Notes: generated from the letters alone by a model not told the origin. 12,220 nt of DNA from a virus (IMGVR_UViG_2534681937_000031), one strand, 5' to 3'. Shown: positions 8,493 to 9,759, numbered from the stretch's first letter. Numbers and translations are program-made.

Positions 8493-9050
8493 ATGACCAC
8501 TATTACCAAAGATCGACTGCTGACAATCCAGCATTGGCGCGAAACATACGGACCGGGTAGCAACGTTGTGCTTCCAGCAGAAGAAGCGGAAGAGCTGGCA
8601 CGGATTGCGCTGGCATCACTGGCAGCAGTATCGGATGAACGAGCAGCCTATGAATTATTTATGGAGAAGCGTTTCGGGGAATCTGTAGATCGCCGCAGAG
8701 CAAAAAATGGCGATAGAGAATACATGGCATGGGATATGGCGCTTGGCTGGATTATCTGGTGTCACCGCGCCGCCATGCTTCAGGCTGGAAACTTTCGGGA
8801 AAATAAGGGTTCGTCAACCAATAATTTTCGGATAATCTCGGAAACGTCAACCAACTCTCCGGCAATCCCTGATGAGGTGTTGTCCGCAATCCTGAAGGTC
8901 GCCAGGCTTCGTGCAGATTTCGATGCTTCTGAAGTGGACAGGCGAGGTATCGGTAGTTGTCTGGATGAGGCCGAGCAAGAACTTATCGTTACCATTAACG
9001 AATACGCCAGTCAGATCGCAGTAGAAGCGACACAGGGGGAGAACCAATGA
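8493..9050 (+). CDS. hypothetical protein
   Basis: 185-aa ORF, ATG 8493 two nt after the upstream stop; its stop overlaps the start of a 25-codon ORF (ATGA). Confidence 0.55.
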   Translation: MTTITKDRLLTIQHWRETYGPGSNVVLPAEEAEELARIALASLAAVSDERAAYELFMEKRFGESVDRRRAKNGDREYMAWDMALGWIIWCHRAAMLQAGNFRENKGSSTNNFRIISETSTNSPAIPDEVLSAILKVARLRADFDASEVDRRGIGSCLDEAEQELIVTINEYASQIAVEATQGENQ

Positions 9051-9124
9051 GCCGGCCAGATGCATTTGCAGGCGTTGCTATAGCTATTGCTTTTCTAGTA
9101 TATGTTATTTGTCGGTGGGGGTAA
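9047..9124 (+). CDS. candidate small hydrophobic peptide (25 aa, MSRPDAFAGVAIAIAFLVYVICRWG)
   Basis: Not in the ORF track (under 60 aa). ATG overlaps the stop of the 8493-9050 gene; single predicted TM helix. Confidence 0.3.
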   Translation: MSRPDAFAGVAIAIAFLVYVICRWG

Positions 9125-9159
9125 AAACGTTCGCCGGGATTCACACCAAGGGAGGGAAT

Positions 9160-9264
9160 ATGTCGGATGATATTTCACTGGTAATGGAAGGCGCTCTGGC
9201 TGTTATTGCTGTTGTGGGTGTTTACTGCCTGGTTGTGTTTTTGATGGAGCGCCTGGGGAACTGA
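9160..9264 (+). CDS. candidate small hydrophobic peptide (34 aa, MSDDISLVMEGALAVIAVVGVYCLVVFLMERLGN)
   Basis: Not in the ORF track. Strong SD AAGGGAGGG just upstream of ATG 9160; single predicted TM helix; followed by a palindrome. Confidence 0.4.
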   Translation: MSDDISLVMEGALAVIAVVGVYCLVVFLMERLGN

Positions 9265-9507
9265 ATTCATTCCGTATGGGAATTCCCATATCGGGCAAAA
9301 CGGTTTGCTGTAAAGCGAGAGTTAAGTAGAATTGCTGCGGGTGCTTGAGGCTGTCTGCCTCGGGCATGCCACCGTAAGGCAGACAGAGAAAAGCCCCAGT
9401 TAACATTACGCGTCCTGCAAGACGCTTAACATTAATCTGAGGCCCAATCTATGCTTCACAAACGTAGGTTAGCCTCTTACGCGCCGAAAGGCAAGGAGAA
9501 GCAGGTT
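9265..9507. other. hok leader/regulatory region (expected site of mRNA fold-back elements and any Sok-like antisense RNA)
   Basis: Contains a 22-bp near-palindrome CCGTATGGGAATTCCCATATCGG (9272-9294) and the hairpin CTGTCTGCC-N18-GGCAGACAG (9351-9386). An in-frame upstream ATG at 9451 with GAGG SD precedes hok. Antisense RNA not located. Confidence 0.35.
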
Positions 9508-9663
9508 ATGAAGCAGCAAAAGGCGATGTTAATCGCCCTGATCGTCATCTGTTTAACCGTCATAGTGACGGCACTGGTAACGAGGAAAGACCTCTGCGAG
9601 GTACGAATCCGAACCGGCCAGACGGAGGTCGCTGTCTTCACAGCTTACGAACCTGAGGAGTAA
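9508..9663 (+). CDS. hokD: Hok/Gef-family type I toxin (HokD/RelF-like, 51 aa)
   Basis: Translation MKQQKAMLIALIVICLTVIVTALVTRKDLCEVRIRTGQTEVAVFTAYEPEE matches the Hok family and, as recalled, E. coli HokD. AAGGAG 9 nt upstream of ATG. Confidence 0.9.
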   Translation: MKQQKAMLIALIVICLTVIVTALVTRKDLCEVRIRTGQTEVAVFTAYEPEE

Positions 9664-9731
9664 GAGACCAGGCGGGGGAGAAATCCCTCGCCACCGCTGA
9701 TGTGTCAGGCATCCTCAACGCACCCGCACTT

Positions 9732-9759
9732 AACCCGCTTCGGCGGGTTTTGTTTTTTC
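9732..9759 (+). terminator. rho-independent terminator (AACCCGC-TTCG-GCGGGTT followed by TTTGTTTTTTCT)
   Basis: 7-bp GC-rich stem, tetraloop and U-rich tract about 70 nt after the hok stop. Confidence 0.75.

Follow-up and report, generated by a model that had tools for sequence, protein, structure and literature searches.

The hok/mok/sok type I toxin-antitoxin locus in a 12,220-nucleotide stretch of viral DNA (IMGVR_UViG_2534681937_000031; hereafter the window, to which positions refer unless another locus is named) is immediately preceded by two very short open reading frames (ORFs), here ORF1 and ORF2, and the question they raise is whether they are genes at all and, if so, whether they are further toxins of the kind that follows them. 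A preliminary description of the sequence had proposed both as unannotated genes for small hydrophobic peptides, missed through length cut-offs, which would make three consecutive small membrane-peptide genes with hok and might be type-I-toxin-like or membrane-modulating. Our comparisons indicate that ORF1 and ORF2 are probably separate, genuine genes, each encoding one short inner-membrane helix and each belonging to a family of its own in lambdoid and other enterobacterial phages, and that neither is a hok-type toxin; we hold this reading with fair confidence.

ORF1 runs on the plus strand from the ATG at 9047 to the TAA at 9124 and encodes the 25-residue peptide MSRPDAFAGVAIAIAFLVYVICRWG. 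Its start codon overlaps the TGA of a 185-codon gene as ATGA (9047-9050), so the start/stop coupling described at the outset is present, and a Shine-Dalgarno (SD)-like GGGGGAG lies on the same strand at 9035-9041, 5 nt before the ATG. ORF2 encodes the 34-residue peptide MSDDISLVMEGALAVIAVVGVYCLVVFLMERLGN, from the ATG at 9160 to the TGA at 9264, also on the plus strand; it begins one base before the 9161 that had been implied. Its SD, AAGGGAGGG at 9148-9156 (plus strand; AAAGGAGGG in most alleles), ends three bases before the ATG. SD strength was taken as the predicted duplex energy with the 3' end of 16S rRNA, ranked over plus-strand positions of the window. On this scale the ORF2 site (-11.8 kcal/mol, equalled or exceeded at 0.4% of positions) is indeed one of the strongest in the window, and that of ORF1 (-9.4 kcal/mol) is equalled or exceeded at 2.8%. 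Each peptide has one strongly hydrophobic stretch, in agreement with the single helix predicted for it; the best 15-residue Kyte-Doolittle windows score 2.73 in ORF1, 2.97 in ORF2 and 3.29 in Hok. The identity of hok/mok/sok is confirmed by Pfam and Rfam, and the row of three small membrane-peptide genes stands.

Both frames are under coding constraint. Alleles of ORF1 were gathered by degenerate-pattern and hok-anchored scans of IMG/VR, plus tblastn, and form a family of 43 DNA alleles encoding 33 protein alleles, almost without exception 27 residues long, with one further locus of 29. The consensus is MxWPEAF[A/T]xxG, about 10 hydrophobic residues, then Y[S/V]ICRWG; G11 never varies, Y21, R25 and W26 rarely do, and replacements within the helix are hydrophobic or small with the one exception of an Asp at position 17. 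Variable sites fall 15/15/20 by codon position, which is saturated and uninformative, and we used instead the ratio of non-synonymous to synonymous polymorphism (pN/pS) contrasted between frames, together with column shuffles. The two alternative frames of ORF1 give pN/pS values of 1.04 and 1.45, the proposed frame 0.31. When the calculation is restricted to the helix codons, on which the search patterns place no constraint, the observed ratio is 0.52 and the mean over column shuffles 0.94; 6 of 300 shuffles reached the observed ratio. ORF2 is open in all 126 related loci, seven of them with a GTG start and four without the last two residues; its polymorphic sites fall 6/2/12 by codon position and its within-family pN/pS is 0.21 in frame versus 0.90 and 2.53 out of frame. 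Among 112 loci selected through ORF2 alone, without reference to ORF1, ORF1 is open in 110. The check on conservation of the reading frames that had been proposed beforehand therefore favours both peptides: each is open in more than 100 related loci, with purifying selection in the proposed frame only.

The ORF1 of the window is a divergent allele and not a typical member of its family, for W3, E5 and two codons are gone and yet homology of the whole ORF is clear at the DNA level. It begins MSRPDAF, so that R stands at position 3 and D at position 5, and, compared with the 27-residue form, a 6-nt gap that keeps the frame removes two codons and leaves it at 25; it thus has neither the N-terminal MxWPEAF motif nor the usual length. 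Its end reads FLVYVICRWG, and the hydrophobic core, the Y-x-I-C-R-W-G terminus, the ATGA overlap and the SD spacing all match the family, DNA homology extending over the full ORF and about 27 nt further upstream through the SD. It might be supposed that this 25-codon ORF is decaying, has lost its function or arose by chance, that the youth of the locus alone keeps it open, and that only ORF2 works. Such a view would account for the residues and codons lost relative to the 33 other protein alleles, for two disrupted loci and nine lacking two residues, and for the near-neutral appearance of the ORF2-linked copies (variable positions 3/7/9 by codon position; about 6 synonymous to 13 non-synonymous changes by hand tally). 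We regard it as very unlikely, however, given the frame-specific constraint on the family as a whole, the fact that the gap is in frame, the retention of the ATGA and SD here, including in a variant with different upstream bases, and the intact helix and ICRWG end.

Family members have a fixed setting. The ATGA overlap with the preceding gene is present in all upstream contexts seen, a GGAGG-like motif lies about 5-9 nt before the ATG in most of them, and the gene overlapped belongs in most cases to the Eaa or DUF551 type. In the window the preceding gene is that of 185 codons (8493-9050, plus strand; PHROG 14306/660/60, no Pfam match), which occupies the position where most related prophages carry a DUF551 gene; at other loci ORF1 is preceded by DUF551 genes whose 3' ends share homology with the SD and the last eight or so codons of this gene. 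In 933W an unannotated homologue, MTWPEAFANVGTVMAVVLVVYSICRWR, overlaps L0139 as ATGA and stands directly before hokW/sokW (locus L128, 1119-1202). Intact, unannotated 27-residue copies follow the DUF551 gene H0068 and adjoin xis/int in VT1-Sakai (L255, 1201-1284), lie between 'EaA' and 'ea22' in the lytic rV5-like phage TH18 (L256, 1201-1284), and follow an 'eaa protein' gene in an IncY Salmonella plasmid (L359, 901-984). ORF1 often precedes hok but not always, and at locus L130 unrelated genes follow it. The upstream gene, not hok, is the constant neighbour of ORF1, and its inclusion in a hok group does not hold: it is tied to the gene before it, and occurs beside xis/int and in lytic rV5-like phages as well.

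Matches to the ORF1 family were found in 93 phage records, including 933W, VT2-Sakai, VT1-Sakai, BP-4795 and TH18, and in 181 plasmid records, mostly non-mobilizable plasmids of 80-105 kb from E. coli, Salmonella and Klebsiella. Among bacteria represented by one genome per species, the ORF1 pattern matched two contigs only, one from an Escherichia sp. and one of 431 bp under the label Xanthomonas pisi (NZ_JPLE01000323.1, L129), the latter most likely E. coli phage contamination, and the ORF2 pattern matched none. A six-frame motif scan of the Qin region of K-12 returned no copy of either peptide, and no candidate gene is annotated in K-12 Rac, where the annotation was looked at and the motif scan was not made; the K-12 small-protein literature therefore seems inapplicable. 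A preprint on small proteins of uropathogenic E. coli held no sequences that could be matched to these peptides. A protein collection clustered at 90% identity groups short peptides with unrelated long proteins, among them a 789-residue xanthine dehydrogenase and 121-residue DUF551 proteins; such mixed clusters are a clustering artefact and could mislead automated annotation. A DUF551-ORF1 fusion in Shigella, suspected from 121-residue DUF551 proteins co-clustered with ORF1, was rejected, as their sequences contain no ORF1 part.

With regard to annotation, the two ORFs differ. ORF1 is in none of the RefSeq locus annotations inspected, as had been claimed of both, and a few GenBank submitters have labelled it 'bacteriophage protein' or 'hypothetical'. 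ORF2, by contrast, is annotated: the window's protein is identical to RefSeq WP_001278460.1, a hypothetical protein, RefSeq calls the 34-residue form in every locus fetched (WP_001278460.1, WP_001278459.1, WP_001278450.1, WP_001278454.1, WP_077779993.1 and ECs_5710), and the UniProt entry reads uncharacterised protein. A nearly identical allele (A8/D30) is ECs_5710, also YP_009502606.1 and XECs145, of the Sakai prophage Sp6. In lysogeny broth XECs145 has a translatome value of 346 reads per kilobase per million (RPKM), a transcriptome RPKM of 79, a ribosome coverage value of 4.35 and an ORF coverage of 0.99, and PredictProtein places it in the inner membrane with one helix (Hücker et al. 2017, PLoS One 12:e0184119; PMC5597208). 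These cultures were uninduced, as published, and spontaneous induction is possible. The same study took only ORFs of at least 30 residues (PMC5597208), below which ORF1 falls. Published ribosome profiling in Sakai, the kind of check that had been called for, thus speaks for translation of ORF2, and loss to a length threshold is an apt description for ORF1; it does not apply to ORF2, which was both annotated and profiled.

XECs145 was published as a 54-residue ORF starting at a more upstream ATG (PMC5597208). That ATG occurs only in the Sp6 copy (L254), where the change from ATA to ATG also converts a Tyr of ORF1 to Cys, and the window reads ATA at 9100-9102. Because the start codon of the longer form is absent from the window, we take the conserved gene to be the 34-residue ORF behind the SD, as called by the Prokaryotic Genome Annotation Pipeline; the published 54-residue start is probably wrong.

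Whether either peptide is a toxin can be approached from several sides. Searches of Pfam, NCBIfam and PHROGs gave no match to Hok/Gef or any other toxin family for ORF1 or ORF2; nothing in the family libraries was significant for either peptide or its relatives, and the scattered weak PHROG matches, which vary by allele, look like generic helix similarity. Among the small membrane families of NCBIfam the best match was KdpF (14.7 bits, E=0.024, cut-off 26.85), with ATP synthase c at 13.8 bits against a cut-off of 116. The sole antitoxin found by Rfam was sok, which belongs to hok. Folding of the ORF2 mRNA region (9120-9310) was not more structured than shuffled sequence (z = -0.65).

The possibility that ORF1, ORF2 or both encode type I toxins in their own right, their antisense RNA antitoxins having gone unrecognised, draws on their size (25 and 34 residues) and hydrophobicity, which fit that class of small hydrophobic membrane peptides, and on their position adjoining a bona fide type I system. 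It draws also on a relative of ORF2, described below as ORF2b, with a promoter-like element of its own and some 35-40 nt of leader, and on a promoter-like TTTACC-17-TATACT at 9125-9097 on the minus strand, directed antisense into ORF1. A promoter scan found such an antisense site only in ORF1, where it is weak; the same scanner missed the hok promoter and any sok-oriented promoter. This site is of chance quality, about one such match being expected in the region, and by eye it is lost in 933W-type alleles. Moreover, a toxin mRNA of this type would be structured and limited in translation, whereas the ORF2 mRNA is of ordinary structure, carries an SD among the strongest in the window and, by its ribosome coverage value, is well translated in growing Sakai cells. 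Known type I toxins tend to be neutral or basic, and ORF2 has a net charge of -3. ORF1 is coupled to an ordinary upstream gene and is not a stand-alone toxin transcript. With no Hok homology, no recognised antitoxin apart from sok and no unusual mRNA structure, the toxin reading is unsupported; we would give it little credence, and the type-I-toxin-like character first suggested for the peptides is not upheld. Membrane-modulating peptides, the other half of that suggestion, remains the best description.

Several points weigh against taking ORF1 and ORF2 as genuine, non-toxin genes. Several of the allele sets came from degenerate patterns that fix some codons, and these codons were excluded or flagged, although bias may remain; pN/pS sums were taken over non-independent pairs, and diversity in the ORF2 group is low, with about 16 DNA alleles. 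The translation data are for ORF2, and the Sakai profiling reads stem from the nearly identical, paralogous Sp6 copy, with multi-mapping among copies possible. Copies of the window's own ORF1, which is without W3, E5 and two codons, differ by only two substitutions, and continued function of the 25-residue allele cannot be shown from so few. Lastly, the negative result for antisense promoters is weak, since the scanner overlooked the hok promoter inferred by eye and made no sok-oriented call.

ORF2 has a different relationship to hok from that of ORF1. The hok-anchored scans uncovered a 29-residue relative, ORF2b (MLVLKCALAIAAVMAIYCLAVVLMDRLSD), with a GTG start behind AGGAGG and a conserved promoter-like element, TTGAAT-17-CATATT, about 30 nt further upstream. 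ORF2 and ORF2b share 63% DNA identity over 29 codons, their differences falling 13/4/15 by codon position, and in a joint column-shuffle test the observed pN/pS was reached in 2 of 300 shuffles. The family is marked by the core ALA[VI]xAVxx[VI]YCLx[VI]V[FL]LM[DE][RH]L and a stop codon close upstream of the hok promoter, and ORF2 of the window shows both features. ORF2b carries no annotation in phages Tritos (L257, 1217-1306) and mEp460_ev081 (L258); E. coli B strains list it as 'membrane protein' or 'conserved hypothetical'.

This linkage raises the possibility that ORF2 and ORF2b are a working third component of prophage hok/sok, either a membrane partner that modulates Hok insertion or its pore (a co-toxin or protein-level immunity) or an element that tunes transcription or translation by abutting the hok promoter. 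Of 100 IMG/VR loci located by a scan anchored on ORF2b alone, 90 have hok about 210 nt further on, and hok follows ORF2 in about 97% of loci, so that the association has outlasted 37% DNA divergence between the two; the ORF2b stop lies 7 nt before the -35 box of hok, with no terminator between, and truncated 3' remnants of ORF2b or ORF2 stay joined to hok after recombination (L187, L214, PPompW). These same remnants also argue the other way, as hok persists beside them and so does not need an intact ORF2. Many hok loci are without ORF2 altogether (933W, PPompW, K-12 hokD): this hok region occurs in 4765 genomes, compared to 732 of 5426 complete E. coli genomes with the ORF1/ORF2 region (median three copies per genome). 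Conversely, one lineage (10 loci; L280, L293, L318) retains an intact ORF2b where hok has been replaced, and the linkage may simply reflect one mobile cassette. We consider a third component unlikely on balance. The same low probability attaches to the bolder combination in which ORF2/ORF2b would be a functional partner setting the timing or strength of Hok, through protein-level or transcriptional coupling, and ORF1 a widespread, almost wholly unannotated 27-residue membrane subunit that works with Eaa/DUF551 proteins in phages both temperate and lytic and in phage-plasmids.

The junctions around ORF2 suggest an inserted cassette. Locus L003 contains two copies of the 11-nt direct repeat GGGTAAAAACG, the first where ORF1 ends and the second immediately beyond a palindrome downstream of ORF2. 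In the window the left copy, at 9119-9129 (plus strand), contains the ORF1 stop codon and borders the cassette, and the right copy is degenerate (GGGCAAAACG, 9293-9302, plus strand; a perfect 11 nt in L003); between them lies a 173-nt unit of SD, ORF2 and palindrome. In 933W a single copy of the repeat joins ORF1 straight to the hok promoter, as an 'empty site' (L128, 1195-1215). The flanking repeats and this single-copy junction make the 173-nt unit look inserted between ORF1 and hok, and suggest that the ORF2 cassette entered as a unit. The palindrome (9272-9294, plus strand; core TATGGGAATTCCCATA at 9275-9290), between ORF2 and the hok promoter, is near-perfect and folds as a hairpin, no T-run following it on either strand, and is also found beside hok in loci without ORF2 (PPompW, L127, about 1522-1547; L228; L204). 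Conceivably it serves as a protein-binding site, marks the 3' end of an RNA or is a scar left by recombination.

Taken together, ORF1 would be translated with the upstream gene by termination-reinitiation aided by its own SD, and would insert into the membrane with the acidic N terminus facing outward and the Arg-Trp end on the inner side, probably as a membrane partner of the upstream gene's product or of a host membrane protein. The ORF2 cassette would have been inserted between ORF1 and hok, making ORF2 an accessory, moron-like gene expressed in the lysogen and carried in the same mobile cassette as hok. Its acidic N-terminal tail may be translocated, as in insertion of the Pf3-coat type, leaving the C-terminal Arg inside; ORF2 would then act within the membrane, and may or may not modulate hok.

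Downstream of the palindrome, a promoter TTTGCT-17-TAGAAT assigned to hok by eye lies at 9304-9332 (plus strand) and is conserved in all aligned hok loci. The hok/mok/sok locus occupies 9339-9759 on the plus strand, comprising a sok match in Rfam at 9339-9513 (115 bits), mok at 9451-9663 and hok at 9509-9663 (both plus strand; Pfam HOK_GEF, E=3e-23, for hok), and a terminator at 9732-9759 (plus strand). A weak isrK-like Rfam match at 9672-9753 (27 bits; gathering score 50) overlaps the terminator and the 3' end of hok, and probably reflects the hairpin of that terminator alone. At the scale of the whole window, no complete E. coli genome matched at 99% or more, the best being strain CDC#03-98 (98.1% over 98%); positions 9030-9300 are 100% identical to a stretch in many O157:H7 genomes. 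The substitution of the 185-codon gene for the usual DUF551 gene marks the window as a mosaic.

Little of the range of small membrane proteins encoded by phages has been charted. ORF1 is unannotated at every locus checked, including the reference records of 933W and VT1-Sakai, rV5-like phages and P1-like plasmids; its coding constraint and fixed coupling arrangement are clear, so adding it to annotation and small-protein screens is straightforward. ORF2/ORF2b, among the better-translated small ORFs of O157:H7, travels with hok/sok, and this raises the testable question of whether a further protein belongs to the hok loci of prophages. ORF2 is already annotated and reported as translated, the ORF1 family is undescribed but of an ordinary kind, and neither point overturns current understanding; the linkage of ORF2 to hok is the sole lead towards mechanistic novelty.

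Among known systems, XECs145 is the same gene as ORF2; its publication assigned no function and does not describe the link to hok, the ORF2b relatives or the cassette structure. ORF1 and ORF2 share with the Hok/Gef proteins (PF01848; the system includes mok and sok, and hokW of 933W is an example) their small size, single inner-membrane helix and location in the same region of the prophage, and both ORF2 and its relative ORF2b are in physical linkage with hok. ORF1 and ORF2 differ in that they show no sequence homology to Hok/Gef and have no periplasmic Cys-containing C-terminal domain, overlapping leader ORF, recognised antisense RNA or folded, translationally inert mRNA, and their strong SDs are exposed. 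KdpF, MgtS, PmrR and AcrZ are peptides of 25-35 residues with one helix, often coupled or adjacent to a partner and routinely unannotated; ORF1 and ORF2 resemble this class but are phage-borne where those are chromosomal core genes, and score below the family cut-off. Phage morons are accessory genes that the prophage expresses from promoters of their own, usually with a terminator. ORF2b resembles them in standing alone between genes, its neighbourhood variable, with an SD and a conserved promoter-like element; ORF2 of the window is without a recognisable promoter or terminator of its own and sits in the early-right gene string directly after ORF1.

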